Shown piece by piece: positions 5,077 through 48,936 of a stretch of DNA of 64,000 bases. The stretch spans positions 82,841 through 146,840 of the forward strand of contig JAXGXY010000002.1 in assembly GCA_040772545.1 (NCBI GenBank), written 5' to 3'. Every line of letters starts with the position of its first letter. Position 1 is the stretch's first letter. This DNA is from Christensenellales bacterium (GTDB taxonomy: Bacteria; Bacillota; Clostridia; Christensenellales; UBA1431). The notes beneath the pieces were generated by a model that had not been told where the DNA came from, searched no databases, and was given only the letters and a program-made list of their open reading frames with translations. The position numbers and the translations under genes were made by a program.

Positions 5077-5170
5077 TGCCGTATTGTGAAAGTCGCACGT
5101 TTTATGATACTATAAGACGAATATTATGTTTGGTATTTCTTATTTGAACCGCCAAAACGGAGGTACTGTC

Positions 5171-8100
5171 ATGGGTACTCTGGATTTATATCTTCAACAG
5201 TTGAAAAAGGACGAGTCGTTTCGGGGGTATTTCGGCCTCGTCCGCATGCACGGGTCCAAGGTCGCATCGGAAATCCTCGAAGGCGATACCATAAAGAAAA
5301 TCACGTACGCTGAGCAGGTGACATACTGCTATGAGACGGCCAGGCGCATCAGCGAGAGGGTGCACGCCGAGGCGGGGACGCGCTTTGTGGGATTAAGGAT
5401 GGGCAACGGCCCGATGTGGCCGGTGATGTTCTGGGGAATCGTCATGGCCGGCCTGAACCCGATCCTTATCGACGTGCGCTACCAGCCGGAACAGGCCGAC
5501 CACCTGCTCCGCCAGGTGAACGCGCTCGCATTGTTCACCGACGACGCTAGCTTCGACGTCGCGGCCTGCCAGTGCATCCCGGTAAGCGAGGTGCTCGACG
5601 ACAGCGGCGGGGAGTGCGCGTACGAGCCCAGATGGGCCACGCATTACGCGCTGTGCACCTCGGGGACGACCGCCACGTCCAAGGTCTACTATTACGAGGC
5701 GAAGACGCTCTGCCAACAGGTGAGCTGCATCGGCTCGCTGACCAAGGACTTCGCCTATACCGACGCGCCCTACAAATCCCTCGCTTTTTTGCCGTTCCAT
5801 CACGTGTTCGGCCTTTTGACCGTCTTTTTCCTCTGCAACCTCTTCGGCGGGACGATCGTGTACCTCAGCGAACTCACGCCCAACGTGATCCTGAACGCCT
5901 GCAGGCGCCACAGGGTCACGCACATCTTCACGGTGCCGCTATTCTGGAACAACATCGCGCAGAACGTGATGCGCAAGGCGAAGCTGGGCGGGCCGGAGCG
6001 CGAGGCCATGCTGCAAAAGCTGATACGCGTAAGCACGATGATCCAGCGGCGCTTCCCGCGGATCGGGCGGAAAATAGTGAGCCGTTTCGTGGCCGGGAAG
6101 GTTCAGGACGCGCTATTAGGGCGCGACATACGCCTCACGATCACGGGGGGCGGGCACATCCTGCCCGAGGCGATGAAGCTCATCAACGTGCTGGGATACC
6201 AGCTAGTAAACGGCTTCGGCATGACCGAGATCGGCATCACCTCGGTGGAGACCACCACCGATTTCGACCTTCGCAACGCCGCCTCGACGGGCAAGCCGAT
6301 GCCCCGCGTGGAATACTACGTCCAGACCGACGAGGGGATCAAAACCGAAGGCGTGGGGGAACTGCTGATAAAGACCGCGTATATCCATACCGGGCGGTAT
6401 ATCGACGGCAAGGACATCGGGTGCGAGGCCGACGATAATGGGTACTTCCACACCGGCGACGTGGGCCGCATCGACAGCACGGGCCGCCTCTGGCTGGAAG
6501 GGCGCCTCAAGGAAGTCATCATCAACGAATCAGGCGAAAACGTGTACCCGGACGAACTCGAGGACGCGTTCCTCGAACTCCCCCACACCGAGCAGATGTG
6601 CGTGACCGGCATCGACACCGGCGGGACATACGAGCAGATCACCCTGGTGCTGCACCTGGGGGACGCGCTCGGCGACAACGAGCGCATCGCCGAGCTGGCG
6701 GAGGCTTTTTCGAAGGCGAACGCGCCGCTGCCCGTATACAAGAAGGTGCAAAGGGTCATCGTCGCGCACGAACCGCTTCCGCTGGCCAGCGGGATCAAGG
6801 TGGCGCGCCAGCGGCTGCGGCGCATGATCGAGCAGGGCGCCGTCGCGTTCGACGAACTGGACGTGCGTGGGGGCCGGCTCATACTGGCCGCGGGGAAGGT
6901 GCAGGCCCCCGAGGTGCTGTCCGCCGGGGTGGAGGAGGCGGACCTCAGGGCCATCAAGGACGAGATCAAGGCCATTTTTGCCGAGGTGCTCTCCCTCAGG
7001 CCCGAGGACATATCCGACACCGCCCATTTCATCAACGACCTGGGGGGCGACAGCCTGTCCAGCCTGGCCGTGTTCATCAAGGCGGAGGAAAAATACGGCC
7101 TGCTCATCAGCGACACGGACTACTACGGCTGCGAGAACGTGAACGACCTGGCCGAACTGATGTACGCAAAGCTCAGGGGGGACAGGGCCGCGCCGCAGAA
7201 GGCCGCTGAGGCGCCGCGGCAGGTCCGCCGCGTCGAGACGTTCGAACAGTCGCGCGAGCACGACGAATTCATGGTCCAGCTCAAGATCGCGGAAGTGGTG
7301 GGGAACCCGTTTTTCATCGCGCACGACTCGGTGCTCAGGGACACGTCGGTCGTGGGCGGCAGGCGCGTTTTCAACTTCGGGTCCTACAACTACCTGGGCC
7401 TGTCGGGGCATCCCGAGACGATGCGCGCCGCCATCGAAGCGATCGGGGAATACGGCACGTCGGCGAGCGGGAGCCGCCTGATCGCGGGCGAGAAGACGCT
7501 TTATAAGGAACTCGAGAAAACGATCGCCGAGTGGAAGCACACCGAGGACGCGCTGGTGCTGGTGGGCGGGCATTCCACCAACGTGACCTTCGTGGGGAAC
7601 TTCTGCAACAAGCGCGACCTGATCCTCTACGACGCGCTCTCCCACAACTCGGTCACGCAGGGCTGCCAGCTCTCCCCGGCCGAGACAAAGGCCTTCCCCC
7701 ACAACGACTACGAAGCGCTCGAAGGCATCCTCAGGGCCAACCGCGACCGGTACGAAAAGGTGCTCATCGTCGTGGAGGGCGTGTACAGCATGGACGGCGA
7801 CATCGCGCCGGTCAAAGAGTTCGTCCGGCTCAAACGCGAGTACGGCGCGTTTTTGATGGTGGACGAGGCGCACTCGAGCTGCGTGATCGGCGAGAAGGGC
7901 GGCGGGGTGGACGAGTACTTCGGGCTGGCGCCCGACGACATCGACATCAAGATGGGGACGCTGAGCAAGGGCCTGGGCACCTGCGGGGGCTATCTGGCGG
8001 GCAAGCGGTCCATGATCGACTATCTGCGCTACAACGTCCCGGGCTTCGTGTTCTCGGTGGGGATCAGCCCGCCGCTTGCCGCGGCGGCCAAGCGGGCGAT

Positions 8101-8446
8101 CGAGCTGCTGGGGGAGAACCCGCAACTGGTGAAGAACCTGCAGGCGAACATCCGCGCGTTCGTGGAGGCCGCCAAGGCGAAGGGGTTCAACACCTGCCTC
8201 GCGAAGGAATCGTCCATCATCCCGATATTCGTCGGCAGGGACGAGGACGCGGCGCTGCTCAGCCGCCTGATGCTCGAAAACGGCGTGTTCGTGCCGCCGG
8301 CCGTGTTCCCTGCGGTCCCCCGCAACCAGGCGCGGCTCAGGTTCTGCGTTACCAGCGAGCACAACGAAGGGCAGATAAAAACAGCCCTCGACACGCTCGA
8401 GAGGCTCGCGGGAGAACAGGGCATCAACCTGACAAAAACGGCCTGA
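5171..8446 (+). CDS. tri-domain fusion: AMP-dependent acyl ligase (FAAL/acyl-ACP synthetase-like) + acyl carrier protein + alpha-oxoamine synthase (8-amino-7-oxononanoate synthase / serine palmitoyltransferase family)
   Basis: ATG 5171 with GGAGG 7 nt upstream. Adenylation motifs: 'TSGTTATSK', 'GFGMTE', 'HTGDVGRIDSTGRLWLEGRLKE'. ACP motif 'DLGGDSLSSL' (DNA ~7041-7061). AOS part: 'NFGSYNYLGLSGHP', 'VEGVYSMDGD', 'VDEAHS', PLP-lysine motif 'GTLSKGLG' (~7954-7977). Confidence 0.85.
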   Translation: MGTLDLYLQQLKKDESFRGYFGLVRMHGSKVASEILEGDTIKKITYAEQVTYCYETARRISERVHAEAGTRFVGLRMGNGPMWPVMFWGIVMAGLNPILIDVRYQPEQADHLLRQVNALALFTDDASFDVAACQCIPVSEVLDDSGGECAYEPRWATHYALCTSGTTATSKVYYYEAKTLCQQVSCIGSLTKDFAYTDAPYKSLAFLPFHHVFGLLTVFFLCNLFGGTIVYLSELTPNVILNACRRHRVTHIFTVPLFWNNIAQNVMRKAKLGGPEREAMLQKLIRVSTMIQRRFPRIGRKIVSRFVAGKVQDALLGRDIRLTITGGGHILPEAMKLINVLGYQLVNGFGMTEIGITSVETTTDFDLRNAASTGKPMPRVEYYVQTDEGIKTEGVGELLIKTAYIHTGRYIDGKDIGCEADDNGYFHTGDVGRIDSTGRLWLEGRLKEVIINESGENVYPDELEDAFLELPHTEQMCVTGIDTGGTYEQITLVLHLGDALGDNERIAELAEAFSKANAPLPVYKKVQRVIVAHEPLPLASGIKVARQRLRRMIEQGAVAFDELDVRGGRLILAAGKVQAPEVLSAGVEEADLRAIKDEIKAIFAEVLSLRPEDISDTAHFINDLGGDSLSSLAVFIKAEEKYGLLISDTDYYGCENVNDLAELMYAKLRGDRAAPQKAAEAPRQVRRVETFEQSREHDEFMVQLKIAEVVGNPFFIAHDSVLRDTSVVGGRRVFNFGSYNYLGLSGHPETMRAAIEAIGEYGTSASGSRLIAGEKTLYKELEKTIAEWKHTEDALVLVGGHSTNVTFVGNFCNKRDLILYDALSHNSVTQGCQLSPAETKAFPHNDYEALEGILRANRDRYEKVLIVVEGVYSMDGDIAPVKEFVRLKREYGAFLMVDEAHSSCVIGEKGGGVDEYFGLAPDDIDIKMGTLSKGLGTCGGYLAGKRSMIDYLRYNVPGFVFSVGISPPLAAAAKRAIELLGENPQLVKNLQANIRAFVEAAKAKGFNTCLAKESSIIPIFVGRDEDAALLSRLMLENGVFVPPAVFPAVPRNQARLRFCVTSEHNEGQIKTALDTLERLAGEQGINLTKTA

Positions 8447-22160: not shown

Positions 22161-22237
22161 GGGGTTATAGCTCAGCTGGTCAGAGCGCTACGTTGACATC
22201 GTAGAGGTCGTTGGTTCGAGCCCAATTAACCCCACCA
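22161..22237 (+). tRNA. tRNA-Val (anticodon GAC)
   Basis: Acceptor GGGGTTA/TAACCCC. D arm GCTCAGCTGGTCAGAGC. Anticodon loop TTGACAT. T arm GTTGGTTCGAGCCCAAT. Encoded CCA. Confidence 0.93.
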
Positions 22238-22245
22238 GCGCATGG

Positions 22246-22282
22246 AATCAGGGTTTTCGCCTATTTGGCGGGCCCTGATTTT
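22246..22282 (+). terminator. terminator after tRNA-Val
   Basis: AATCAGGG...CCCTGATTTTCGTTT. Confidence 0.6.
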
Positions 22283-22497
22283 CGTTTGGGCTGCCCGATT
22301 CGGGCGCGCAATAGGCGGAGAACGTTTCGTATGCCGCCACGCCCGGAGAAAACGAGGTTCGATGCTTTTTGCCCCGGCTCCCGATGCCTGCGCGTTGGTT
22401 TTTCAAAGCATATGGAGAACCGTTGAAACAGTACCTTTGATTATTTTTGGAATATGCTGATTAGGCGACCGTAAAAGTTAGAAAGGGAGTCTCAAAG

Positions 22498-22809
22498 ATG
22501 AAAGACGGCAAATGCGTAGATTACTGCAAAGTGAATGATATATGCAACGACGAACATTGTCACCATGATTGCAAAAACGAAATTCTTTGTTGTGAGGCAA
22601 AGGTATGCAGATGCGGCGCAGAGCTTTTTTGCACGGTTGCTGAAAGGTTGTCGTGCGAAATAAAGATGGCGAGGAGTTCGCGGGAGCTGGCGTGCTTTAT
22701 CGAATTGAGCAACAGCTTTTTGATCGCCAGTGCGCAGAAAGAAAATGCGATCAGCAGCGTTTTATGTTGTCTCGGCGTGAATGAAGAAAAGATGCTTAAG
22801 TGTCCATAA
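22498..22809 (+). CDS. hypothetical cysteine-rich small protein
   Basis: 103-aa ORF in a visibly AT-richer patch. RBS AAAGGGAG. The N-terminal ~45 aa carry ~11 Cys ('CVDYCKVNDICNDEHCHHDCKNEILCCEAKVCRCGAELFC'). A hairpin terminator follows. Confidence 0.6.
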   Translation: MKDGKCVDYCKVNDICNDEHCHHDCKNEILCCEAKVCRCGAELFCTVAERLSCEIKMARSSRELACFIELSNSFLIASAQKENAISSVLCCLGVNEEKMLKCP

Positions 22810-22826
22810 GCGTTATTATTTAATAA

Positions 22827-22848
22827 GAAGGGAGCAAATGCTCCCTTC
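22827..22848 (+). terminator. hairpin terminator of the Cys-rich gene
   Basis: GAAGGGAGCaaatGCTCCCTTC. Confidence 0.6.
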
Positions 22849-22850
22849 TA

Positions 22851-22979
22851 GGCCGTCGACAAACCCTTCGGGATTTGTCGACGGTTTTCTGTGTGGAAAA
22901 AATGACTTTTTTTCCGCCAATCTGACGCACATGTCGTCAGATTGGATTGAAGGCGGGGGATTGCATCCCCACACCCCCT
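22851..22979 (+). repeat. family-1 modular four-hairpin element, copy 1
   Basis: GTCGACAAAcccttcgggaTTTGTCGAC; GGAAAAAAtgacTTTTTTTCC; CAATCTGACGcacatgtCGTCAGATTG; then GGATTGAAGG and GGGGGattgcatCCCCacaCCCCC. Near-identical to 36136-36266. Confidence 0.85.
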
Positions 22980-23265
22980 GCCAGTCCGGGGAGCATATCC
23001 TCCTTCTTTCCTGTTTTTCTTCGGAGGACCCTTGCCCGTCAGCCCGCCCATAATGTCCGCGCCTATGCACAAGGTGCCGTGTACGGTTTGCCGGGCAGGC
23101 CATATTCGATCGGTTTTCCTGCAGCATTTTGGTTGGCCGCACAAAAAGGTTCTTCTTTAACTCGCAGAACGCTTCATACTACCGGACGACTGGCTCCGGA
23201 TAATCGGCTGGAACCAGAGCCTGTCCGCGTTTCTTTTTCTTTATGCGATATTGTTTTGCGGGTGT

Positions 23266-23294
23266 TGACAAAGGACAAAGTAATTGGTAAGATA
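23266..23294 (+). promoter_or_regulatory. rRNA operon promoter candidate
   Basis: TTGACA (23266-23271), 17 nt spacer, TAAGAT (23289-23294), ~180 nt upstream of 16S. Confidence 0.5.
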
Positions 23295-23474
23295 ATAAAG
23301 CCGCCTGAGAGGCGGGTTTCGCCTTAAAGAGGCGGGAAGGCAGCAGCTTGAAAACTATACAGTACACCTAAGCAAGGTAAGAGACAGACAAAGAAGAAGC
23401 CAGAGAGACTTTGAGTTAAAGAGAACCCCGTCCGGTGTTTTGAGAGAAGAAGCGCGGGGCGGGACAAAGGATTT

Positions 23475-25016
<1,542 letters not shown>

Positions 25017-25207
25017 GGGAGTAAGGATTCGAGAGAATCGTACTTCATAGGTCGATAGTGTTTCTGGCAAGCGACATCGGCGAAGGGGTACTGTATGGTT
25101 TTGAGGCCGCTGGGCGTCTTAATGTAATTTAACTATGTTAAGATGGCATTCCTGCCTCAACGGCAGGGAGCGGGCTTCACTCTTGGACGTAAGCACGTCC
25201 CCGGGGT

Positions 25208-25327
25208 ATGGGGGCGGAGGCTCCCATGTTCAGCGACATGTGCGGCGAATCGGTGAAGAAACGGCGCCGGGAGCGGCGTTTCAACCGACCGGGAACCAGA
25301 CAAATCCCGAAGGGATTTGCTCTGGCC
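25208..25327 (-). repeat. family-1 element, degenerate copy in the 16S-23S spacer (inverted orientation)
   Basis: Starts GGGGTATGGGGG. CAGCGACATGTGCGGCG retains the conserved ACATGT loop. Also GAAACGGCGCcgggagCGGCGTTTC, AACCGACC, and CAGACAAATCCCgaaGGGATTTGCTCTG. Confidence 0.65.
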
Positions 25328-25335
25328 CAGCAGAC

Positions 25336-25390
25336 GGGGGTGTAGCTCAGCTGGGAGAGCACCTGCCTTGCACGCAGGGGGTCAGCGGTT
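25336..25390 (+). pseudogene. tRNA-Ala (UGC), 5' two-thirds only; T-arm and 3' acceptor strand not found
   Basis: GGGGGTGTAGCTCAGCTGGGAGAGCACCTGCCTTGCACGCAGGGGGTCAGCGGTTC is canonical up to T-loop 'TTC'. It then runs into TCGTCGGAGCAAACTACGCTCC (family-2 repeat). No ...CCGCTCACCCCCACCA follows. Confidence 0.6.
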
Positions 25391-25520
25391 CTCGTCGGAG
25401 CAAACTACGCTCCACTCCGAACCCCCTAAGCGCTTTGCGCGGCGGGGATTCGTCGCAACGCTCCGTTGCTCCTCCTTATCCCCACAAAGCTTGCGCTTTG
25501 CGGGGAGGTACTCGGGAAGG
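25391..25520 (+). repeat. family-2 spacer repeat, copy a
   Basis: CGTCGGAGCAAACTACGCTCC..CCCCTAAGCGCTTTGCGCGGCGGGGATTCGTCGC..CGCTCCGTTGCTCCTCC..CACAAAGCTTGCGCTTTGCGGGG. Related to 25605-25715 and, inverted, to 29115-29300. Confidence 0.7.
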
Positions 25521-25527
25521 GCTGTGT

Positions 25528-25604
<77 letters not shown>

Positions 25605-25715
25605 CCGCGTCGGAGCAAACTACGCTCTGCTCCCGCGTCGGAGCGGACTGCGCTTCGCTCGCTTACGGGCAAAGCCCGAAAGCTCGCGCGCTCCGTCGCT
25701 CCTCCTTTAACGTGA
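25605..25715 (+). repeat. family-2 spacer repeat, copy b (first module duplicated)
   Basis: CCGCGTCGGAGCAAACTACGCTCTGCTC followed by CCGCGTCGGAGCGGACTGCGCTTCGCTC, then ...CGCTCCGTCGCTCCTCCTTTAAC. Confidence 0.65.
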
Positions 25716-25764
25716 GAGGCGCTGGGGCCTCACCTTCTGGAAGGCAGAACGTTCCAGGGGGTAT

Positions 25765-25889
25765 GGGGGATCGCAATCCCCCATGTCAATCCAATCTGGC
25801 GACATGCGCGTCAGATTGGGGAAGAAATGTTGCGAAGTAACATTTCAACCGACCAGGAATCCGCATAGGGCCGAAGGCCCGAATGCGGC
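25765..25889 (-). repeat. family-1 element, copy in the 16S-23S spacer (inverted orientation)
   Basis: GGGGGATCGCAATCCCCC, TCAATCC, CAATCTGGCGACATGCGCGTCAGATTG, GAAATGTTGCGAAGTAACATTTC, AACCGACC. This is the reverse complement of the module order in copies 1-3. Confidence 0.75.
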
Positions 25890-26041
25890 AAGGAAAGCCG
25901 GAGGCTTTCCGGAAGAAGAGCACCTTGAAAACCGCATAACGAAGTAAAGCGAGAGCAAGAAAAGGGTAAGATGCGCTTTTAGAAGGAAAGTGCAGCATAC
26001 TGAAAGATTCGCTTGGTAAAACAAGAGTCAAGGGAAGAGAC

Positions 26042-28963
<2,922 letters not shown>

Positions 28964-29114
28964 ACGATTTTCAGGCGCTGCGTTAAGGCGCAAACCTTAC
29001 GTTTCTCGCACAAACGGCGTTATGCGGTTTTGAGGGTGTTTGGTCCTACGGCAATTAATATGCCGGGATGACGCTCGAATACGAGCAGGCACCATTACCC
29101 GCGCCAAAATGGAG

Positions 29115-29300
29115 GCGCAGCGGAGCGTAGTTTGCTACGACGCAGTAGCCCTACCTTCAAAATCCCCGCTAAAACCCTCCCCGGGAAAACCATGCAAAGC
29201 GTAGCTTTGCATGGAAGAGGAGGAGCAACGGAGCGGGGCGAAGAATCCCCGATCGCGAAGCGTAAAGGGGATTCAGAGCAAAGCGAAGTTTGCTACGACG
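29115..29300 (-). repeat. family-2 repeat material in the 23S-5S spacer (inverted)
   Basis: GGAGCGTAGTTTGCTACGACG; CCATGCAAAGCGTAGCTTTGCATGG; GGAGGAGCAACGGAGCG; GGGGCGAAGAATCCCCGATCGCGAAGCGTAAAGGGG. These are reverse complements of the copy-a modules. Confidence 0.65.
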
Positions 29301-29305
29301 AAGTT

Positions 29306-29421
<116 letters not shown>

Positions 29422-29430
29422 TTCCAATAT

Positions 29431-29505
29431 TCCTCAGTAGCTCAGCGGTAGAGCATCCGGCTGTTAACCGGAGGGCCGTAGGTTCAAATCCTACCTGAGG
29501 AGCCA
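29431..29505 (+). tRNA. tRNA-Asn (anticodon GUU)
   Basis: Acceptor TCCTCAG/CTGAGGA. Anticodon loop CTGTTAA. T arm GTAGGTTCAAATCCTAC. Encoded CCA. Confidence 0.92.
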
Positions 29506-40794: not shown

Positions 40795-41175
40795 TCAGCA
40801 GCGTTTTCTCCTTCTTATCCCGGCGTCCTGGACGATGTTGAGCGCCTCGCCGAAGCGCTGGAAATGCACGACCTCTCGCTCCCTGAGGAACAGCAGCGGA
40901 TTGCGCACGTCCGGGTCGGCGGTAAGGCGGATCAGGTGCTCGTACGTCGCGCGCGCCTTCTGCTCTGCGGCCATGTCCTCGGTAAGGTCGGCGACCGGGT
41001 CGCCGGTGCAGGCGACGTAGGAAGCCGTGAAAGGGACGCCGTTCGGGTCGCAGGGGAAGAGCCCGAAGTCGTGCTCGGTGTAGAACCCTTCCATCCCCGA
41101 GGCGCGGATGCCCGCGACCGACGCGCCGCGCATGCACTGGTGGATCATCGTCCCTATCATCTCCCAGTGGGCCAA
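40795..41175 (-). CDS. cotJC: spore coat protein CotJC (manganese-catalase family), 3' segment (codons 66-191) of a split gene
   Basis: 'LAHWEMIGTMIHQ...NGVPFTASYVACTGDPVADLTEDMAAEQKARATYEHLI...FLREREVVHFQRF' aligns with B. subtilis CotJC residues ~66-189 as I recall them. No start codon or RBS of its own. Confidence 0.85.
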   Translation of the reverse strand: MAHWEMIGTMIHQCMRGASVAGIRASGMEGFYTEHDFGLFPCDPNGVPFTASYVACTGDPVADLTEDMAAEQKARATYEHLIRLTADPDVRNPLLFLREREVVHFQRFGEALNIVQDAGIRRRKRC

Positions 41176-42776
41176 TTCTTCGGTGCCGCGTTATTGTCGG
41201 TGAGGATGCGGTCCGGGAGCCTGGGGTACAGCACGAGTTCGAACGCGCCCTTAAATACGCGCGCCCGCCCGTTGCCGCCGCGCACGGCCTTATAATAGTC
41301 TATCCGTTCGACGAGGCTCCTGAGCAGGCTGTTTTTCGACATGACGGAGGGCGCGAGCGCATACGCGGCGGCGATGTCTTCGGCGCGCGCGCGCCGGTCC
41401 CGCAGCGCTGTTTCGCGCGCCCGCGCGGCCTGCAGCTGGCGGCGGAGTTCTGTTTCCTGGCGCCGGAGTTCCTCCGTTTGCTCAAGCAGCGCTTCTTTGC
41501 GTTTTTCAAACGTTTCGGCGTCGTATACGCCCTGTTCGAGCAGGTCGTGCGCGGCGGCGCGCTGCGCCTCGAGGCGCGCGAGGCCTTCCCCGATGCGCCT
41601 GAGCGCCTGCGCGGCCGCCGCTTCGACCGGCGCAGGGCCGGTATCGCCTTTAGCTCCGGCGCGTAGCCTGTACCCCCGCAGCCATGTTTTAAGCGAGCGC
41701 AGCACGGCCGATTCGACGAGGCGCAGTTCCGAGCTCACGTTCGCGCAGGCGGCGTCCGGGCAGACGAGCGCGTCCGGCGCGTTTTTGTACGGCTTCCTGC
41801 ACATGCGCCCGCCGCAGACCCCGCAATAAACGAGGCCGGCGAGCGGGTTTTTCAGGGACCCGCCGCGCGTGCCCCGCGGATGCCCGCCGGACAGGTACTC
41901 CTGCGCCCGGTCCCAGGCTTCGCGGCCGATCAGGGGCGGGTGGAGGCCGTCCACCACGATGCAGCCGCCGTTGCGGGGCCGGCTGACCGCCGCGCCGCCG
42001 TCTTTTGCTCTCTTTACCGCCGGGCGGCCCATGTAGCGTATCTTCCCGGCGTAGACGGGGTTTTTGAGGAGCGGCTGGAGCATGGACGGCGTCCAGCGCG
42101 CGGCCCGCCGCGGCCTGATGCCCAGGTCGTTGAGCCTGCGGGCGAGGCGGGCGACGCCCAGCCGCCCTTCGGCCCCGTCGCCCTTTGTATACAGCTCGAA
42201 GATGAGCTTCACGGCCGGGGCGGCGGCCGGGTCCGGGGCGAGCGTGTAGCCTTTCTGGCCGTCGAGCTTCACGCGGACGTAGCCGAACGGCGCGACGCTG
42301 CCGGTGTACTTCCCCTCCAGGGCGGAGGCGCGCCGGCCGCGCTGGAGCCGGCGGTTGATCGCCCTGTACTCGCGGCGGCTCATGAACAGGCCGAACTCGA
42401 AATACTCCTCGTCGAACTCGTCGTCGGGGTCGTAGGTCTTCGCGGGCGTGACGATCTTCGTGTGGGAGAGGGAGAACGCGCGCGCGATGACGCCCTGGTC
42501 GATCGTGTCGCCGCGCGCGAGACGCTCGATCTCCATCACGAGCACGCCGTCCCACAGGCCGCCTTCCACCTCGGAAAGGAGCCGACGCATCACGGGCCGC
42601 GCTGCGATGGTCTCGCCGGAGACGATCTCGCGGTAGGTTTTGGACACGGGCAACCCCATGCGTTCGGCGAGGGAAACGAGCGCGGCCCGGTGGCGCGCGA
42701 GGGTCTCGCCTTCGCCGCGCGCCTCGGCCTCGGCGTCCGCCCTGGATTTTCGAAGGTAGATGCAGTAGTTTGCCAT
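41157..42776 (-). CDS. large serine recombinase, SprA-like
   Basis: ATG 42776. 'YLRKSRADAE..TL..H...L', 'EIVSGETIAARP', 'VLVMEIERLARGD', 'IVTPAKTYDP', 'FEFGLFMSRREY', Zn-ribbon 'CGVCGGRMCRK...CPDAAC', long coiled coil. 539 aa. The stop codon lies beyond the element edge. The 100-codon N-terminal extension in the ORF track covers a repeat and is rejected. Confidence 0.88.
   Translation of the reverse strand: MANYCIYLRKSRADAEAEARGEGETLARHRAALVSLAERMGLPVSKTYREIVSGETIAARPVMRRLLSEVEGGLWDGVLVMEIERLARGDTIDQGVIARAFSLSHTKIVTPAKTYDPDDEFDEEYFEFGLFMSRREYRAINRRLQRGRRASALEGKYTGSVAPFGYVRVKLDGQKGYTLAPDPAAAPAVKLIFELYTKGDGAEGRLGVARLARRLNDLGIRPRRAARWTPSMLQPLLKNPVYAGKIRYMGRPAVKRAKDGGAAVSRPRNGGCIVVDGLHPPLIGREAWDRAQEYLSGGHPRGTRGGSLKNPLAGLVYCGVCGGRMCRKPYKNAPDALVCPDAACANVSSELRLVESAVLRSLKTWLRGYRLRAGAKGDTGPAPVEAAAAQALRRIGEGLARLEAQRAAAHDLLEQGVYDAETFEKRKEALLEQTEELRRQETELRRQLQAARARETALRDRRARAEDIAAAYALAPSVMSKNSLLRSLVERIDYYKAVRGGNGRARVFKGAFELVLYPRLPDRILTDNNAAPKNWPTGR
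41160..41208. other. left recombination junction (attL-type: B arm + core + P' arm)
   Basis: ...CCCAGTGGGCCAA|TTCTTC|GGTGCCGCGTTATTGTCGGTGAGGAT. The core TTCTTCGGTGCC (41176-41187) matches 48148-48159 at 11/12 positions. Confidence 0.7.
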
Positions 42777-42843
42777 CGTTTCACCGCCCGCTAAGCTTTG
42801 TATATTTGTATTTCGCGGGGGCGGCGGATATGGCGGGTACGAT

Positions 42844-42980
42844 GCCGACAAACCTGTGGTTTGTCGGCAATTTTCCGGCAGGTTGAAACGCGCTTTAAGG
42901 CGCGTTTCTTTGCCGATCCTGACGCACATGTCACCAGGATCGGATTGAAGCTCAGGGGGCTTCGGCCCCCCTGAACCCCC
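42844..42980 (+). repeat. family-1 modular four-hairpin element, copy 3 (divergent, with compensatory stem changes)
   Basis: GCCGACAAACCtgtGGTTTGTCGGC; GAAACGCGCtttaaGGCGCGTTTC; CGATCCTGacgcacatgtcacCAGGATCG; GGATTGAAGC; GGGGGCttcgGCCCCCCTGAACCCCC. Confidence 0.8.
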
Positions 42981-43078
42981 AGGGGAAGTTACCGTTTGCC
43001 ATGTTGCCCGGGGTGAAAGGCTGACGATTACCGGTCGGACACATTTGAATAAACCTTCCGTTGCATAAAAACGCACAC

Positions 43079-43303
43079 CTACAAATAGCGTTTCAATACT
43101 TCAACAAGGTCATCTTTATAATTTTCCAACTCATAAATATTGCTGATCGATATCTTTGTATCTTTTTTGTTCTCGTCGGGAATTATGAGGATTCGTTGTT
43201 TTTCTTTAATCATAAGCCGGCATATCCATTTCCGGACATTGTTCTTGTAATTTATAGCGATATAGGACGCGGTGTCCTTGTAGCCGATGTCATCCATGGG
43301 CAC
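43079..43303 (-). CDS. hypothetical protein, probably a gene fragment (AT-rich patch)
   Basis: 74-aa ORF 'MPMDDIGYKDTASYIAINYKNNVRKWICRLMIKEKQRILIIPDE...'. No convincing RBS seen, and composition differs from its surroundings. Confidence 0.3.
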   Translation of the reverse strand: MPMDDIGYKDTASYIAINYKNNVRKWICRLMIKEKQRILIIPDENKKDTKISISNIYELENYKDDLVEVLKRYL

Positions 43304-43603
43304 GAGTTCACGAAGAAGGTTTTTGATGATAAAATACTACTTCACAACACAAAAAAACGATTGCCAGATATTTCATGTGCGCATGGCATGGCGGAGGATA
43401 TATAATTTAACGGTACGAATAAGAAGGCTCGCGCGGCCTCAGACGGAAGGAGCGCGGGCCTGACCGCGGCATGATCGGCTGCAGCGATCGAACCGACGAC
43501 AAATACGGGCCATGCGTAGTGTTTAAACGCAGGTTGAGGATTGCATTAACGTTTTAACATATGGTATCCTGAATTAATATATTAACTCATAAGAGGGGAT
43601 TTT

Positions 43604-44425
43604 ATGAAAAAATCGATGGTGGTGGTCATTGCAGTGCTGATGCTGGCGCTTCTGCTGGCGGGCTGCAAACAGACTGAGGGCACGGACGAGGGGCAACAGA
43701 CGCCCGAGAAAGTGACGATCGGCGGAGTGGAAGACCTTGAAGGCAGGAAGATCGCGGTGCAGGAAGGCACCACGGGCGACATCCTTGCGACCGATATCAA
43801 GGACGCGAAGATCTCGCGGTTCAAAAAGGCGGTCGACGCGGGCATCGAACTGAAGAACGGCAAAGCGGACGCGGTGATCCTCGACGAACAGCCTGCGAAG
43901 AAGATCGTCGAGAACAACCCCGAACTGATGATCCTCAAGGAGAACTTCGTCAAGGAGGACTACGCGATCGGCGTACGCAAGGGCGAGACGGAGCTGTTAG
44001 ACAGCATCAATAAGACCCTCGAGCGCATCAAGGAGGACGGCACCTTCCAGACCTTCCTCGACGCCTACATCCCCGAGACCGGCGAGAGGAAGGCGCTCCC
44101 CGAAAGGACGGCCACGAACTATGACGAAACGATCGTGATGGGGACGAACGCCGAATTCGAGCCTTTCGAGTACATCGAAGGCGACCAGATCGTCGGTTTC
44201 GACGTCGAGGTCGCAAAAGAGATCGCCGCGGACCTGAAGCAGAACCTCAAGATCGAGAACATGAACTTCGACAGCCTCATCAACGCGCTGGTCTCCGGGA
44301 AGATCGACATGATCATCGCCGGAATGACGGTAACGGAAGAGCGCAAGCAGAGCATCGATTTCTCCGAACCGTACTATACGTCAACGCAGGTCATCATCAT
44401 CAGGAAGGAAAGCCTGAAGCAATAG
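43604..44425 (+). CDS. amino-acid ABC transporter substrate-binding lipoprotein
   Basis: Signal peptide plus lipobox 'LALLLAGCK'. 'KIAVQEGTTGD', 'DAVILDEQPA', 'GTNAEFEPFEY', 'DMIIAGMTVTEERKQSIDFSEPYY' are family-3 SBP motifs. Confidence 0.85.
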   Translation: MKKSMVVVIAVLMLALLLAGCKQTEGTDEGQQTPEKVTIGGVEDLEGRKIAVQEGTTGDILATDIKDAKISRFKKAVDAGIELKNGKADAVILDEQPAKKIVENNPELMILKENFVKEDYAIGVRKGETELLDSINKTLERIKEDGTFQTFLDAYIPETGERKALPERTATNYDETIVMGTNAEFEPFEYIEGDQIVGFDVEVAKEIAADLKQNLKIENMNFDSLINALVSGKIDMIIAGMTVTEERKQSIDFSEPYYTSTQVIIIRKESLKQ

Positions 44426-44440
44426 CATACGATAGTACCG

Positions 44441-45181
44441 ATGCGGGACAGCGTAAGACTGTCCCGCTTTTTCGGTGCCGGCCAGGGGGGATGCGGCTTG
44501 TTCGACGAAATATACAGGAACATCATCTACCAGGACAGGTGGCTGTACCTGCTCAAGGGGCTGTGGGTCACCGTCGAGGTCACGTTGTTCGCGATCCTTT
44601 TGGGGACCATACTCGGCATGATCCTGGCACTGATGCGGATATCGAACTTCAAACTCTTTCGAATAAGGATCCTCGAAAAGATTTCGTCCTTCTACATAAC
44701 GATCATCCGGGGGACGCCGCTGATGGTCCAGCTGCTGATCATCTATTTCGTGGTGTTCGCGTCGGTGGACATCGACAAGGTGATCGTCGCGGTCATCGCG
44801 TTCGGCCTCAACAGCGCGGCCTACGTCGCGGAGATCATCCGCGGAGGCATCCTTTCGGTGGACAAGGGGCAGACGGAGGCCGGGCGCTCGCTGGGCCTGA
44901 GCTACACGCAGACGATGCGCCACATCGTCATGCCGCAGGCCATAAAGAACGCGCTGCCCGCGTACACGAGCGAGTTCATCGTCCTCATCAAGGAGACGGC
45001 CATCGTCGGCTACATCGCGCTCGAGGATTTGACCAAGGTGGGGGACACCATACGCAGCAGGACGTTCTCCGCGCTTGTCCCCCTGCTGACCGTCGCGCTC
45101 ATCTATCTGCTTCTGACGGGAGTGCTCGCGAAACTGTTCATGAGGCTGGAGAGGAGACTGAGAAGAAGTGATAACCGTTAA
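44441..45181 (+). CDS. amino-acid ABC transporter permease (His/Glu/Gln/Arg/opine family)
   Basis: '[16 protein letters not shown]', '[35 protein letters not shown]' is the EAA loop. Start uncertain (44441, or a downstream TTG ~44498). Confidence 0.85.
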
Positions 45182-45896
45182 GCACCTGAGCAAGGCATTC
45201 GACGGCCAGCTCGCGGTCGACGACGTTTCCATGGAAATAAACAAAGGGGACAAGATCGTCATCGTCGGGCCGTCGGGGTCGGGGAAGAGCACGTTCCTGC
45301 GCTGCCTCAACCTGCTCGAGGTCCCGACGGGCGGGGAAATCTTCTTCGAGGGACAGCGTATCACGGACCCCAAAACGGACATCAACGAGGTCCGCGCGAA
45401 GATGGGGATGGTGTTCCAGCAGTTCAACCTGTTCCCGCACCTGACGGTGCTCGGCAACATCACGCTGGCCCCCGTCAGGCTGAAGCGGCAGACGAAACAG
45501 GAGGCCGAGGAAACGGCGAACCGGCTATTGGATCGCGTCGGGCTCACGGATAAGCGCGACGCCTATCCCGCGCAACTCTCCGGCGGGCAGAAGCAGAGGA
45601 TCGCGATCGTGCGGGCACTGGCGATGAACCCGGACGTGATGCTCTTCGACGAGCCGACGTCCGCGCTCGACCCCGAGATGGTAGGCGAGGTGCTCGACGT
45701 GATGCGCGAACTCGCCGAGGAAGGCCTGACGATGGTGGTCGTCACGCACGAGATGGGCTTTGCCAAGCAGGTCGGCACGCGGGTGACGTTCATGGACGAG
45801 GGCAGGATCAAGGAGGAAGCGAGCCCCGAGGAGTTCTTCTCGAACCCGAAGCACCCGAGGCTCAGGGATTTCCTTTCGAAGGTCCTGAACGCGTAA
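45168..45896 (+). CDS. amino-acid ABC transporter ATP-binding protein
   Basis: GTG start. 'GPSGSGKST' (Walker A), '[15 protein letters not shown]' (signature), '[11 protein letters not shown]' (Walker B). Confidence 0.92.
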
Positions 45897-45925
45897 ACGC
45901 GGCCGGCGCGAGACGCGACTATGCG

Positions 45926-46186
45926 TTACAGGCCGGTAACATGTTTCGCGCGGTCGTAATCCTTTCGTCTCACGTAGACTTTGTACTCGATTGTCGCGGT
46001 GCCACGCCCGAACCTTCCGAGAGTTGCGCCTGGCGGTGGTACGCCCAGGTCCCTGAACCTGTAGCTGTAGTCGATGCCGTTGGCTTCAAGCGCCTGCCCG
46101 ACCTTGCTGAACCTTTCCATTGAACGGGTAACAATAAGTTCACTTCGGTTAAATATGGTAATCATTGTCCAACGCAAACACCGCAA
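45926..46186 (-). CDS. hypothetical small protein (DUF2007-like?)
   Basis: 86-aa ORF; the likely start is internal ('MITIFNRSELIV...'). The family assignment is from memory only. Confidence 0.35.
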   Translation of the reverse strand: MRCLRWTMITIFNRSELIVTRSMERFSKVGQALEANGIDYSYRFRDLGVPPPGATLGRFGRGTATIEYKVYVRRKDYDRAKHVTGL

Positions 46187-46403
46187 TCAATAGATTGATG
46201 AGAAATCTCGCGGTTTCCTCATCCACCTGAAATGACTGGCTAACCTTTTCCGGCATTTCTCTGTCTTGCTTGCCGTACGTGTCAATCTGTAGATACTTTT
46301 TGTCGTTTCCCTCAAACACAGTATACGTGCTGCTTACTATTTCGTGTATGTTGTTGCGTTGCTTTTCGATTCGAACAAACTTATTCGCATTTATCTGTGC
46401 CAT
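46149..46403 (-). CDS. hypothetical protein / N-terminal gene fragment (AT-rich patch)
   Basis: 84-aa ORF 'MAQINANKFVRIEKQRNNIHEIV...YLQIDTYGKQDREMPEKVSQSFQVDEETARFL'. It ends where composition switches back to GC-rich and overlaps the next ORF by 38 nt. Confidence 0.35.
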   Translation of the reverse strand: MAQINANKFVRIEKQRNNIHEIVSSTYTVFEGNDKKYLQIDTYGKQDREMPEKVSQSFQVDEETARFLINLLIAVFALDNDYHI

Positions 46404-46434
46404 ATCGAATCTCCCAAATAACGGGTTCTCTGTT

Positions 46435-46656
46435 TCATTTCAACCTGTCGATTATCTCGTTGGACCTATCTATTGACTCGTTGGACTCATCTATTAGTCG
46501 TTGCACCTCTTTATACTCTTCACTTTCTTCGTATAGTCTTTTTCCTTCACTTTGGGCGTTCATCCAAAACAGAGTGAGCACTCCAAATACAGCAGCAACG
46601 CACGCCACCACAATAACAGCGATTTTCCATCCTTTCATCCCGAGCCCTCCTTTCAA
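46435..46656 (-). CDS. hypothetical small membrane-anchored protein
   Basis: 73 aa. TM helix 'WKIAVIVVACVAAVFGVLTLFW', then an acidic coiled-coil-like tail. Confidence 0.4.
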   Translation of the reverse strand: MKGGLGMKGWKIAVIVVACVAAVFGVLTLFWMNAQSEGKRLYEESEEYKEVQRLIDESNESIDRSNEIIDRLK

Positions 46657-46865
46657 TGCCAGTTTATACTATGCTAGGAGGGGAGTAAACCGGCGGCTAG
46701 GGCAGGGGCATCCAGTGAGTAATATGCATCATTCATTTTTGGTTCTATTTATACTAATTCCATACGCGATCGTCTATTTCCTTTTTATGTGATGGATTGC
46801 ATTGGTGTAAAATACCGCAAAATGGACGTGCCGCCGGTCATAGACTGTTTCTGGGGCGGTTTCAA

Positions 46866-47060
46866 TTGAAAAAACCGAACATCGTCGAAACATATGTGTA
46901 CGAGGACGGGCCCGTCGCGCATATCGCAGACGACGCATACAGGGAAAAGACGCCGGAGGAACTGCGCGTCGCGTGGAAGACGGCGCAGGCCGCCGCGTTC
47001 GCCTGCCTGGAAGCGGGGCAAAGCGGGCCGCCTGAGCCGGAGCAAAGCGGGGACGCGTGA
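46866..47060 (+). CDS. hypothetical small protein
   Basis: ~64-aa ORF from TTG 46866 ('LKKPNIVETYVYEDGPVAHIADDAYREKTPEELRVAW...'). A strong terminator follows directly. The start is uncertain. Confidence 0.3.
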   Translation: MKKPNIVETYVYEDGPVAHIADDAYREKTPEELRVAWKTAQAAAFACLEAGQSGPPEPEQSGDA

Positions 47061-47074
47061 AGCCGCGCTTTGGT

Positions 47075-47106
47075 GCGCCGGCGGCGCTTTGCCGGCGCTT
47101 TTTTTA
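47075..47106 (+). terminator. intrinsic terminator
   Basis: GCGCCGGCggcgctttGCCGGCGCTTTTTTTATT. Confidence 0.75.
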
Positions 47107-47409
47107 TTGGACAAGCATCGGGGGGCGGATTTTCGTGCGGTTAAGCGTCCGGCGTCCGGCAGTTTTGCGGGATGCCGGGCGCAGGGCGGCAGGCGGACGC
47201 CCGGCAAAGCGAACGCACGGCTGGAAGCAAAAATTTGTAAACAATGGTATTTTTGCCCGGGATAAGATCGCGGCAAATGGATACACTTAACATAACCTTT
47301 TCGGTATGTACCGGCATTCGCGGCGCACGGAGCCGTTTATTGCGGCCATATCCTGAAGGATGAACGAAGAATAAATGCAATAACACGAAATCGAAGGACA
47401 GGAGGCCGA

Positions 47410-48009
47410 ATGAAAAGACCGGGATACAGGCTGCCCGCGATATACTTATCGATCGCGTTCTGCCTGTTAACCATAGGGATGACGGAGCAGGCGGGCGCGC
47501 GGGGACAGGCGGCGGCGGTGTTCAACCACGTGAGCGGAATTTTGGGCAGCGTTATCGAAACGCCGGAGCCGACGGCGACGCCGGCGTCCGTACGGACGCA
47601 AACGCCGAAGACGGCGAAGCCGACGCCCGTACGGACGCAAACGCCCAAGCAGGCGCCCGCGCAGGCATATTCGAAGAAAGACCTCGACCTGCTCGCCAGG
47701 GTCGTATACGCCGAGGCGGGGAGCGACTGGTGCAGCGACGAAATGCAGCTTCTCGTCGCGAACGTCGTGATCAACCGCATGCGCGACCGGCGGTTCCCGG
47801 ACACGCTCCGGGGCGTGGTCTACCAGCGGGGGCAGTACGCCTGCGCATACAAGCTGGGGCGCGTGAAGCCCAACGCGCGCGCGGTGAAAAACGCGAAGCG
47901 TGTGCTGGACGGGGAGCGGTTCTGCCCGGCCAAAGTGGTTTTCCAGAGCGAGTTCAGGCAGGGGAAGGGCCTGTGGAAGAAGGTCGGGAATCAGTACTTT
48001 TGTTATTGA
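47410..48009 (+). CDS. cell wall hydrolase, SleB/CwlJ (Hydrolase_2) family, secreted
   Basis: RBS GGACAGGAGG. Signal-like 'LPAIYLSIAFCLLTIGM'. Pro/Thr linker with a 'VRTQTPK' repeat. 'LLARVVYAEAGSDWCSDEMQLLVANVVINRMRDRRFPDTLRGVVYQRGQYACAY' is the SleB catalytic-domain pattern. Confidence 0.8.
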   Translation: MKRPGYRLPAIYLSIAFCLLTIGMTEQAGARGQAAAVFNHVSGILGSVIETPEPTATPASVRTQTPKTAKPTPVRTQTPKQAPAQAYSKKDLDLLARVVYAEAGSDWCSDEMQLLVANVVINRMRDRRFPDTLRGVVYQRGQYACAYKLGRVKPNARAVKNAKRVLDGERFCPAKVVFQSEFRQGKGLWKKVGNQYFCY

Positions 48010-48034
48010 GGGGAAATGGGGGCAAGTTGAAAGA

Positions 48035-48068
48035 AGCCCCGCGGGCGGTGTCTGCGGGGCTTTCTATT
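48035..48068 (+). terminator. terminator after the SleB-like gene
   Basis: AGCCCCGCgggcggtgtctGCGGGGCTTTCTATT. Confidence 0.65.
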
Positions 48069-48126
48069 GCCGATAAGGCTTATTAGTGATGAATGCTGTA
48101 TAATACCGGTCTTCCCCCTTATTTCC

Positions 48127-48175
48127 CCGACAATAATGCGGTACCGGTTCTTCTGTGCCTATGTCGGTGAGGATC
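48127..48175. other. right recombination junction (attR-type: P arm + core + B' arm)
   Basis: CCGACAATAATGCGGTACCGG|TTCTTC|TGTGCCTATGTCGGTGAGGAT. The P arm is the inverted repeat of 41182-41200. Confidence 0.7.
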
Positions 48176-48342
48176 GACTTGCAGGCGTCGTTGGGCATGG
48201 AATAGCGCTGGTTGAGGTAGCGGATGCCCGCGGCGAGCTCGCTGTCGGGGCCGCCGTACTGGGCGAGGAGCGCCTTGGCCATGCGCAGGTCGGGTTTCCG
48301 GATCCGTACGGGGAACTGAAGCTTTTTCTCATATATCCACAT
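48148..48342 (-). CDS. cotJC: spore coat protein CotJC, 5' segment (codons 1-65) of a split gene
   Basis: RBS AAGGAGG. 'MWIYEKKLQFPVRIRKPDLRMAKALLAQYGGPDSELAAGIRYLNQRYSMPNDACKSILTDIGTEE' is the CotJC/Mn-catalase N-terminus. As integrated, the frame reads 27 unrelated codons into the element and stops at 48064. Confidence 0.88.
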
Positions 48343-48361: not shown

Positions 48362-48610
48362 CTACATTTCCCACGGCCAGGGCGACTTCACCCAGGTACG
48401 GCATTCGCCCGCGGGCTGCAGCCCGTTTCCCAGCAGGGGCCCGTATTTGCAGCTGTAATCGTCCATCAACTGACGCAGGCGGCAGGCGCAGATGTCGTAA
48501 TCCTCCATGGCGCGGGCGTCGTCGGGGTGGGTATCCAGGAAGAGCCGGAGTTCGAGACACGCGAACTCGGTCGCTCGTATTTCGTTGAGCATGTGTTGCT
48601 TGTTACGCAT
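48362..48610 (-). CDS. cotJB: spore coat protein CotJB
   Basis: 82 aa. 'ATEFACLELRLFLDTHPDDARAMEDY', 'KYGPL', C-terminal 'SPWPWE' is the CotJB signature. RBS AAGGAGG. Confidence 0.88.
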   Translation of the reverse strand: MRNKQHMLNEIRATEFACLELRLFLDTHPDDARAMEDYDICACRLRQLMDDYSCKYGPLLGNGLQPAGECRTWVKSPWPWEM

Positions 48611-48632: not shown

Positions 48633-48936
48633 CTATCGGGAGACCAGGCAGGGGAACAGCGTGCCGTGCAAAAGCGCCTCGCGTGGATTGAACATGCGCC
48701 CGTAAGGCTGGTCGCGCACTGAGGCCTGTGCGAGCGGGAGCGAGGGGCACGGGTCTTCTTCCTGCATGTACAGGCAGGCGCAGGGGTCGGCGTACGCGCC
48801 CCGCCCTTTGCACACTTTCGCTTCGCCGGCGTTAAGCGCCCGTTCGTCCCTGTCGTACAGTGCGGGGCCGCAAATATAAGCACCGTGGCCGCAAACGGAA
48901 CACGCGTAATCATAATCCATATACATAACGTTAAGA
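48633..48936 (-). CDS. cotJA: spore coat-associated protein CotJA
   Basis: C-terminal 101 codons of the 538-aa shadow ORF. ATG 48936 after GGAGG. 'LAQASVRDQPYGRMFNPREALLHGTLFPCL' is the CotJA motif. Has a Cys-rich N-terminal extension. Confidence 0.75.

Follow-up and report, generated by a model that had tools for sequence, protein, structure and literature searches.

The third gene of a cotJABC spore-coat operon, cotJC, is split by a 6,972-bp element that encodes its own large serine recombinase in the 64-kb stretch of DNA analyzed here (hereafter the window), which derives from a metagenome-assembled genome (MAG) of an uncultured member of the Christensenellales/Clostridiales. We propose that this element is probably excised during sporulation, which would restore an intact cotJC. 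All parts of the operon lie on the minus strand. The first gene, cotJA (48926..48633), and the second, cotJB (48610..48362), match the Pfam families CotJA (E = 8.9e-10) and CotJB (E = 3.3e-26), respectively. An earlier reading of the sequence (the original prediction) gave the same limits for cotJB, and placed the start of cotJA at 48936; that start gives stop codons, and a check of the frame leads to an in-frame start at 48926. The 5′ part of cotJC (48342..48148; codons 1–65, ending ...KSILTDIGTEE) follows, and its frame, as integrated, drifts into unrelated element sequence and reaches a stop at 48064. The 3′ part (41175..40795; codons 66–191 and the stop codon, LAHWEMIG...RKRC) lies across the element, such that the equivalent junction positions in cotJC are 6,972 bp apart.

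Both pieces of cotJC are multiples of three in length, and the joined product has 191 residues. It matches Pfam Mn_catalase in one stretch (residues 1–182 on profile positions 1–196, E = 1.4e-53) and aligns over 95–100% of its own length with uninterrupted homologs of 191–200 aa, the best of them at 90% identity, in agreement with the predicted in-frame split into 65 and 126 codons. A hidden Markov model (HMM) built from uninterrupted CotJC homologs finds two collinear pieces only (profile positions 1–65 and 62–188), and the HMM scan of the 64-kb window reveals no other CotJC-like sequence. The suggested check thereby shows collinear halves, the 4-residue overlap between the two pieces being the result of sequence mimicry in the att arm.

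Because the alignment to solved Mn catalases is gap-free around the cut, the junction between E65 and L66 can be seen to part the Glu from the His of an ExxH metal-ligand motif. The 5′ part holds the residues aligned to Mn-catalase E35 and E65, and the 3′ part holds H68 and the remaining ligand positions, with ligand identities that we take to be those of the Lactobacillus plantarum Mn catalase; in this alignment neither fragment by itself has a complete ligand set. Independent assemblies from NCBI, JGI, ENA, and Logan all show the identical split allele. In Bacillus subtilis, cotJ is expressed in the mother cell, and if this timing is carried over, the element interrupts a mother-cell sporulation gene, cutting cotJC at codon 65/66 downstream of cotJA and cotJB.

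Recombinase and Attachment Sites

A 539-aa large serine recombinase is encoded at the element's edge, next to the cotJC 3′ part (42776..41157, minus strand). Its Resolvase (PF00239), Recombinase (PF07508), and Zn_ribbon_recom (PF13408) domains all score above cut-offs, and it matches the integrase family phrog_95 (E = 1e-92). The predicted similarity to SprA is borne out, the closest solved relative being SPbeta SprA/YokA (PDB 9dxh, E = 1e-43, residues 3–490), with which it has the motif YLRxSRxD...GE.TL in common (YLRKSR aligned with YLRRSR in SprA). The open reading frame (ORF) of the recombinase runs through attR, so that its final six codons (NWPTGR) and stop codon consist of cotJC DNA and it ends 18 nt inside the 3′ fragment; in the predicted excised circle the protein would have 581 aa, with a different 47-aa tail, versus 539 aa when integrated. 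The frame likewise crosses attR in the related element L031, and does not in L030. Upstream of the recombinase, no promoter is conserved beyond the closest relatives; a possible sigma-E-like match there was picked out by eye.

The attL site (48120..48175) comprises the cotJC-side arm and the P′ arm of the element (ACCGGTACCGCATTATTGTCGG), and attR (41150..41205) comprises the P arm of the element (CCGACAATAACGCGGCACCGAA) and the cotJC 3′ arm. The two sites have the core GAAGAA in common, which comparison with related elements, including L031, narrows to GA(A); the crossover dinucleotide is probably GA, at 48150–48149 in attL and 41178–41177 in attR. The reconstructed attP, CCGACAATAACGCGGCACCG-AAGAAC-CGGTACCGCATTATTGTCGG, has arms that are complementary at 18 of 20 positions, and the P and P′ arms are kept in related elements. 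Recombination would give the attB joint GGCACAGAAGAATTGGCCCAC (junction sequence ATAGGCACAGAAGAATTGGCCCACTGGGAG) and the attP joint GCGGCACCGAAGAACCGGTACCGC (junction sequence AACGCGGCACCGAAGAACCGGTACCGCATT). The domain order of the protein, the inverted-repeat arms of attP, and the short core common to attP and attB are those of a large serine recombinase system.

Among the loci compared (L017, L018, L019, L030, L031, L033, and the window at 41173–41175), cotJC resumes 3′ of the junction with TTG wherever this site (site A) is occupied, and with CTG or CTT in the two empty sites; all three codons encode Leu, and the difference may reflect a site preference of the recombinase or have another cause.

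Empty Site, Inheritance, and Selection

A search in relatives for an uninterrupted cotJC carrying the predicted attB, as had been proposed, was successful. A metagenome contig from a sister species (L017, 79–87% nucleotide identity) has an intact cotJA-cotJB-cotJC, an attB that matches the predicted joint, and, downstream of cotJC, the same neighbors as the window, encoding a 167-aa protein, a 118-aa protein, and a tRNA synthetase. A contig of the same species as the window (L019) carries the element at the same site. The element and its flanks are there equally (~95%) identical to the window, which implies that the element was present in the common ancestor and has been inherited vertically.

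Since the split between the window and L019, cotJC has acquired 8 synonymous and 3 non-synonymous substitutions (omega 0.107; binomial p = 6e-4), and the recombinase, with an omega of 0.41 versus L019, has a frame that is open in all lineages. The split cotJC genes of Laceyella sacchari and L. tengchongensis differ by 18 synonymous and 2 non-synonymous substitutions (omega 0.03). A JGI metagenome contig that has the same flanks but lacks the element encodes the exact 189-aa CotJC predicted for the joined L. sacchari halves; it could represent either an element-free strain or an excision product. Purifying selection on the halves argues that split cotJC genes are kept functional, a state for which the element must be removed precisely.

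No full-length CotJC of >90% identity was found among representatives of 5.8 billion protein clusters, but the truncated N-terminal fragment is recorded as nine variants in many assemblies (cluster members of 76–130 aa, with a variable out-of-frame tail); on these grounds the split allele is the norm in the species. The element thus combines a recombinase of its own at one edge, in-frame restoration of the gene on joining, and vertical inheritance with a functional split gene, as do the intervening elements of sporulation genes (skin, SPbeta, vfbin, vrin, gin, and yin).

A Candidate Directionality Factor

An all-against-all comparison of seven cotJC elements revealed one well-conserved ORF, other than the recombinase, common to the window, L019, L030, and L031, the recombinases of which are at least 63% identical. 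In the window this ORF (46866..47060, plus strand) encodes 64 aa, with 49–58% identity in the comparison, and is a candidate recombination directionality factor (RDF). Its length ranges from 58 to 67 aa across elements, and several annotation pipelines call it as 64–65 aa. The only other match outside the recombinase within these elements is between window positions 46186..45929 and L031 (34% identity, E = 9e-5). Searches with the small ORF gave no Pfam, PHROG, NCBIfam, or meaningful PDB match. An alternative model, in which it forms part of an 81–87-aa protein with a frameshift in the window, was rejected because the frame of the upstream block differs between elements and the gene callers agree on 64–65 aa.

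That upstream block is promoter-like (46823..46850, plus strand), reading TGGAC-N11-CATAGACTGTTT in the window and having the general form TGGAC-N10/11-CATA[CG]A[CG]TGTTT; GGGG and the start codon come next. The window has a single copy, none of 100 shuffles has one, and all four elements (window, L019, L030, and L031) retain the block. A 1-nt spacer indel shifts its reading frame between elements, which argues that the block is conserved at the DNA level as a non-coding sequence. The −10-like sequence CATACACT/CATAGACT is close to CATACAnT, the consensus for sigma-E of B. subtilis, and the GGAC is similar to the SpoIIID core. A −10-like element, CATAAAAT, in a conserved block upstream of cotJA, seen in four species, resembles that of the small ORF. 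Directly 3′ of the small ORF is a terminator-like hairpin (47075..47098, plus strand) with a 10-bp stem, including 8 GC pairs, followed by TTTTTTT. The layout is like that of sprB, CD1234, and girX, small directionality factors whose expression determines whether excision takes place, and we infer a corresponding function here.

The G-run between the block and the start of the small ORF differs in length, with TGGGG in the window (46851–46865) and nine G in L019 (5380–5395); the difference could affect ribosome binding, or could stem from a homopolymer sequencing error. Matches to the promoter motif in viral contigs (15 in number) were rejected as chance, none being near a recombinase or a homolog of the small ORF, and their number falling inside a chance expectation that was roughly estimated rather than computed.

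A Wider Family of Recombinases at cotJC

A scan of genome contigs returned only distant relatives of the recombinase (27–47% identity), and closer ones came from the protein database. For all seven homologs of 50–66% identity whose contigs were examined (L030–L033 and L049–L051), the recombinase gene lies immediately upstream of a cotJC 3′ fragment with the same cut. L030 and L031 have the host synteny of the window and other cargo, with GGDEF, cold-shock, and HAD genes in one and thiamine-salvage genes in the other. L033 and L049–L051 carry CI-like repressor, antirepressor (ANT), RecT, YqaJ, and Gp49 modules, and look like functional prophages.

A second cut site in cotJC, used with recombinases of 35–47% identity in Laceyella, Hazenella, and L022, lies 12 codons downstream, after MVYK at codon 77/78, and has the attP CCATGATGCGA...TCGCATCATGG; in a neighbor-joining tree of the recombinases the two cotJC site groups are apart. 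Other distant relatives adjoin a sigK 3′ fragment (L008), truncated LysM-GH18 yaaH-like genes (L001 and L007), and GH18 genes (L009–L013), and the sigK-splitting relative falls inside the same recombinase tree.

Several loci of this family have individual features. In Terrisporobacter and Romboutsia (L009–L013 and L028), a 420–440-aa GH18 chitinase-like ORF begins ~30–50 nt after the recombinase, and may be a further split spore-associated gene in Peptostreptococcaceae. In L032 (675–9142), cotJC is in three pieces (profile positions 1–34, 27–67, and 62–137), the 3′ piece ending early; the sequences that separate the pieces encode a second serine recombinase (461 aa), an amidase, and a GH25 lysozyme, which implies two elements in one gene. 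In L003 (330–9922), an AT-rich Clostridia contig, a cotJC 3′ piece (profile positions 114–189) is upstream of a recombinase and cotJA-cotJB on the same strand, with a second recombinase after cotJB, and the locus is either rearranged or misassembled. On L023 (6904–7089) the sequence ...EMVYKLT... directly after a recombinase of the second-site clade mimics the cotJC motif at that site, and may mark an attP that has not integrated, the contig then being from a phage or plasmid.

In Hazenella coriacea (L004, 1–11600), the element that splits cotJC exceeds 10 kb, and its cargo, as read from translations with no family scan, includes merA/merR, arsC, an arsenical pump, and a class-A-type beta-lactamase; if these assignments hold, a putative sporulation-excised element is a carrier of resistance genes. 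A 47–52-aa ORF divergent from the recombinase in Thermoactinomycetaceae (L005, 9625–9771, and L004, 9772–9936, both minus strand) has the motif I.I.PP.I[ST][DE]EE and may be the directionality factor used at the second cotJC site; the small ORFs of this family gave no meaningful match in PDB, Pfam, PHROG, or NCBIfam.

Element Content and Genomic Surroundings

The cargo of the window element includes a polar-amino-acid ABC transporter (43604..45896, plus strand), assigned with Pfam and consisting of a binding protein (43604–44425), a permease (44441–45181), and an ATPase (45168–45896). NCBIfam matches of the GlnQ/TcyN type are under cut-off, and omega versus L019 is 0.14–0.19. The binding protein looks circularly permuted, residues 38–156 resembling the C-terminal part and residues 174–270 the N-terminal part of GlnH/ArtJ-type profiles; the protein is nevertheless conserved in L019 (omega 0.16). 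A secreted SleB/CwlJ-like cell-wall hydrolase of the Hydrolase_2 family (47410..48009, plus strand; Pfam E = 1.2e-14) also forms part of the cargo; it matches PHROG endolysin families weakly, is named CwlJ-like by JGI, and scores far under the cut-off for TIGR02869 SleB.

On the minus strand, a 73-aa membrane/coiled-coil ORF (46435..46656) with weak spanin-like PHROG matches lies within 322 bp that the sister element in L019 lacks. An 84-aa ORF with no family match (46149..46403) is conserved in L019 (omega 0.29), and an ORF of about 80–86 aa of unknown function (45926..46186) is conserved in L019 and weakly in L031. A 74-aa remnant (43079..43303, minus strand) is the tail of an HsdR_N-type endonuclease (phrog_4225) that is intact at 351 aa in L019 and L025, and that was mostly removed from the window element by an 888-bp deletion.

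Apart from the weak endolysin and spanin-like PHROG matches, the 7-kb element has no virion, packaging, or replication genes, and does not classify as a functional prophage; the recombinase, the endonuclease remnant, the ABC transporter, the small ORFs, and the hydrolase make up all of it. Nor does it classify as an integrative conjugative or mobilizable element, no relaxase, oriT, or type IV secretion/coupling domains being present among the scanned element ORFs. The earlier statement that the element has no phage genes holds for structural and replication genes, but not for the hydrolase, which matches endolysin PHROGs, or for the endonuclease remnant, which belongs to phrog_4225. We interpret the 6,972-bp segment as an integrative element that derives from a prophage and has degenerated. 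Its G+C content is 58% versus 59–63% in the flanks, and is patchy (40–72%) within the element; a sigma-70 promoter scan of the element gave no excess over shuffled sequence.

The surroundings consist of core housekeeping genes together with an rRNA operon, which is complete and includes three tRNA genes (22161–29502; 16S 23475–25013, 23S 26042–28964, 5S 29306–29422). Further away, next to nucleotide-sugar genes, is a 1,106-aa fusion of AMP-binding, carrier-protein, and class I/II aminotransferase domains (5126–8446).

Proposed Excision and Alternative Explanations

Our preferred interpretation, to which we assign a probability of about 0.6, is that the window harbors a developmentally excised element of the skin/SPbeta type in cotJC. 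The element would have been inserted by its own large serine recombinase at the conserved site between cotJC E65 and L66. In cells needing CotJC, most likely the terminally differentiating mother cell in sporulation, recombination of attL with attR would be carried out by the recombinase acting with a small element-encoded directionality factor, for which the 64-aa ORF is the best candidate. The products would be a 7-kb circle and an intact 191-aa cotJC behind cotJA-cotJB; the chromosome of the forespore, i.e., of the germline, would keep the element, such that the amino-acid ABC transporter and cell-wall hydrolase would be inherited. The original prediction had likewise assigned the element to the skin/SPbeta type, and this assignment agrees with the architecture, the purifying selection, the intact unit of att sites, recombinase, and candidate RDF, and the ties of the recombinase clade to sporulation genes; the part of it that concerns excision in the mother cell keeps the standing of a prediction.

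Several observations weigh against developmental excision. Look-ups of joined proteins and viral contigs, an indirect approach, found no attB joint or attP circle molecule of the window species: neither the exact joined CotJC (in the window, L019, L030, L031, and L015 forms) nor the 581-aa circle form of the recombinase occurs in the protein collection, and viral contigs lack the attP junction. The selection test on cotJC in the window species comprises 11 substitutions only, the recombinase evolves faster than the cargo, and the cargo has decayed, as seen from the 888-bp deletion and the 322-bp indel relative to L019. The small ORF is without similarity to any known RDF, including SprB/YotN, and its candidacy as an RDF draws on conservation, size, and gene layout. 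The sigma-E-like interpretation of the promoter-like block relies on B. subtilis consensus sequences, and the −35 region is poor. The host is a presumed spore-former, and the scan for CotJC paralogs covers the 64-kb window.

Some of these observations would also fit an ordinary or dead insertion, in which a prophage remnant inactivates cotJC and excises rarely or never, with no developmental role, and CotJC is dispensable or backed up. The decayed cargo and the lack of a detected excision product are as expected for such a remnant, and the recombinase has close relatives among the integrases of real prophages at the same attB (L033 and L049–L051), such that the site may be a mere conserved landing pad. 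Clostridioides difficile has several CotJC-like proteins, and mutants are without a major coat defect (PMC11222575). We nonetheless consider a dead insertion unlikely, given that both halves of cotJC have remained open with an omega of 0.11 after the element was inherited (0.03 in Laceyella), that the recombinase, both att sites, and the small-ORF unit are intact in every lineage examined, and that no other CotJC-like sequence was detected by HMM in the window while the split allele appears fixed in the species.

Precedent exists for a reversible switch (active lysogeny), in which excision and re-integration in growing cells, by stress or by chance, would produce cotJC-ON and cotJC-OFF subpopulations: for the yin element in yabG of Clostridium botulinum, every time point shows subpopulations with the element excised and others with it integrated (PMC10747680). 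The chemistry of recombinase and RDF is reversible, and the change in the C-terminal tail between the integrated and circular forms of the recombinase could bias direction. A switch of this kind is quite improbable here, since a 7-kb circle with no recognizable replication or partition genes would be lost from dividing cells, and since the small ORF has a −10-like element of the CATAnAnT shape, as does the region upstream of cotJA. Moreover, cotJ is expressed only in the mother cell in B. subtilis, and vegetative switching would then be purposeless.

At all occupied sites the junction is followed by TTG, which could serve as a start codon (the two empty sites have CTG or CTT), and this could allow a two-piece CotJC whose separately expressed fragments assemble with no DNA rearrangement; purifying selection on both halves fits this model too. 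It is very improbable, however, in view of the lack of a ribosome-binding site before the TTG, the position of the 3′ half 7 kb from the cotJ promoter and behind the recombinase gene, the location of the cut inside the ExxH ligand motif within a helix, and the variable, out-of-frame tail of the N-terminal fragment. An assembly or binning artifact joining unrelated DNA inside cotJC, a concern with any MAG as source, is refuted by the independent contigs, which have the same junctions in NCBI, JGI, ENA, and Logan assemblies, as well as by att arms with the expected inverted repeats and by related species with different cargo at the identical site.

Beyond developmental excision in the window, we tentatively suggest, at somewhat less than even odds, that cotJC-intervening elements form a large family in anaerobic Clostridia (Christensenellales, Oscillospirales, and others), ranging from live prophages to domesticated 7–8-kb cargo islands, in each case with a recombinase of a single SprA-like clade that targets the ExxH-coding DNA, and that the window element is excised in the mother cell via a sigma-E-type promoter on a new 64-aa directionality factor. 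Should this hold, the cargo would be germline inherited and soma deleted, the locus would provide this order's first described case of a coat enzyme gene that undergoes developmental rearrangement, and new sets of recombinase, RDF, and att sites would become available. Confirmation of excision would bring a spore-coat enzyme gene, and a poorly studied order of uncultured anaerobes, into the range of programmed gene reconstitution by recombinases, and would provide a case of prophage decay to a small cargo island that is inherited vertically.

As a target of integration, cotJC is a frequent hotspot, with two independent crossover sites that different recombinase subclades use, and the defined attB/attP set together with the candidate directionality factor offers possible orthogonal integrase parts. 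The split also matters for annotation: pipelines call the pieces of split cotJC fragments or pseudogenes, and sporulation genes in MAGs may be under-counted.

Comparison with Known Systems

The original prediction knew of no cotJC-interrupting element, which the literature does not bear out. A skin-like element that interrupts cotJC of L. sacchari has been reported with coordinates (Galperin et al., 2022), and a passage in a 2021 preprint on SPbeta relatives names cotJC among integration targets, citing Abe et al. (2013); these descriptions are by sequence analysis only. Our literature search brought up neither experimental work on a cotJC element nor any account of the Clostridia clade, and the supplements of a study on regulated gene integrity contain no cotJC, catalase, or spore-coat entry (Mageeney et al., 2020). 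The window element is a further case of an already reported phenomenon, and the added value lies in the family-level picture and the RDF candidate.

The L. sacchari element is similar to that of the window in that it splits the same gene, is ~8 kb, has a recombinase of 39–40% identity, and leaves gene halves under strong purifying selection. The two differ in crossover site, attP, recombinase subclade, host class (Bacilli for Laceyella), and cargo.

The skin elements in sigK (B. subtilis SpoIVCA/Skr; C. difficile CD1231/CD1234) are likewise degenerate and prophage derived and split a mother-cell sporulation gene, have the recombinase gene at the edge, immediately upstream of the 3′ gene fragment, and across hosts have the recombinase alone in common. 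In contrast to the 7-kb element described here, they are 14–48 kb; the cargo here is an ABC transporter, and excision and its control are, for the window element, predicted. The target here is a coat enzyme/structural gene, not a sigma factor as for skin, and excision would therefore not gate a regulon.

SPbeta in spsM resembles the window element with respect to its recombinase, SprA being the closest solved homolog, and its target, both targets being late spore-surface genes. In the model for SPbeta, a recombinase acts with a small RDF (SprB) whose expression decides excision (PMC5499854; PMC4191935), and the model proposed here is the same. SPbeta is, however, a 134-kb active phage, whereas structural and replication genes are lacking in the window element.

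The gin element in gerE of Bacillus cereus, a characterized intervening element with no phage genes, is an earlier precedent for the non-prophage type. It is also small, and combines a large serine recombinase (GirC) with a tiny factor of unknown fold (GirX, 42 aa versus 64 aa here), which, like the small ORF of the window, was picked out by conservation among related elements. Unlike the window element, which has one recombinase gene, gin has three, and its excision has been shown in vivo and in vitro, where ours is predicted.

The prophages at the same cotJC site in other Clostridia (L033 and L049–L051) have recombinases that are 50–54% identical to that of the window, a junction at profile position 65/66, and similar P arms. 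They differ in possessing the lysogeny and recombination modules that have been lost from the window element.

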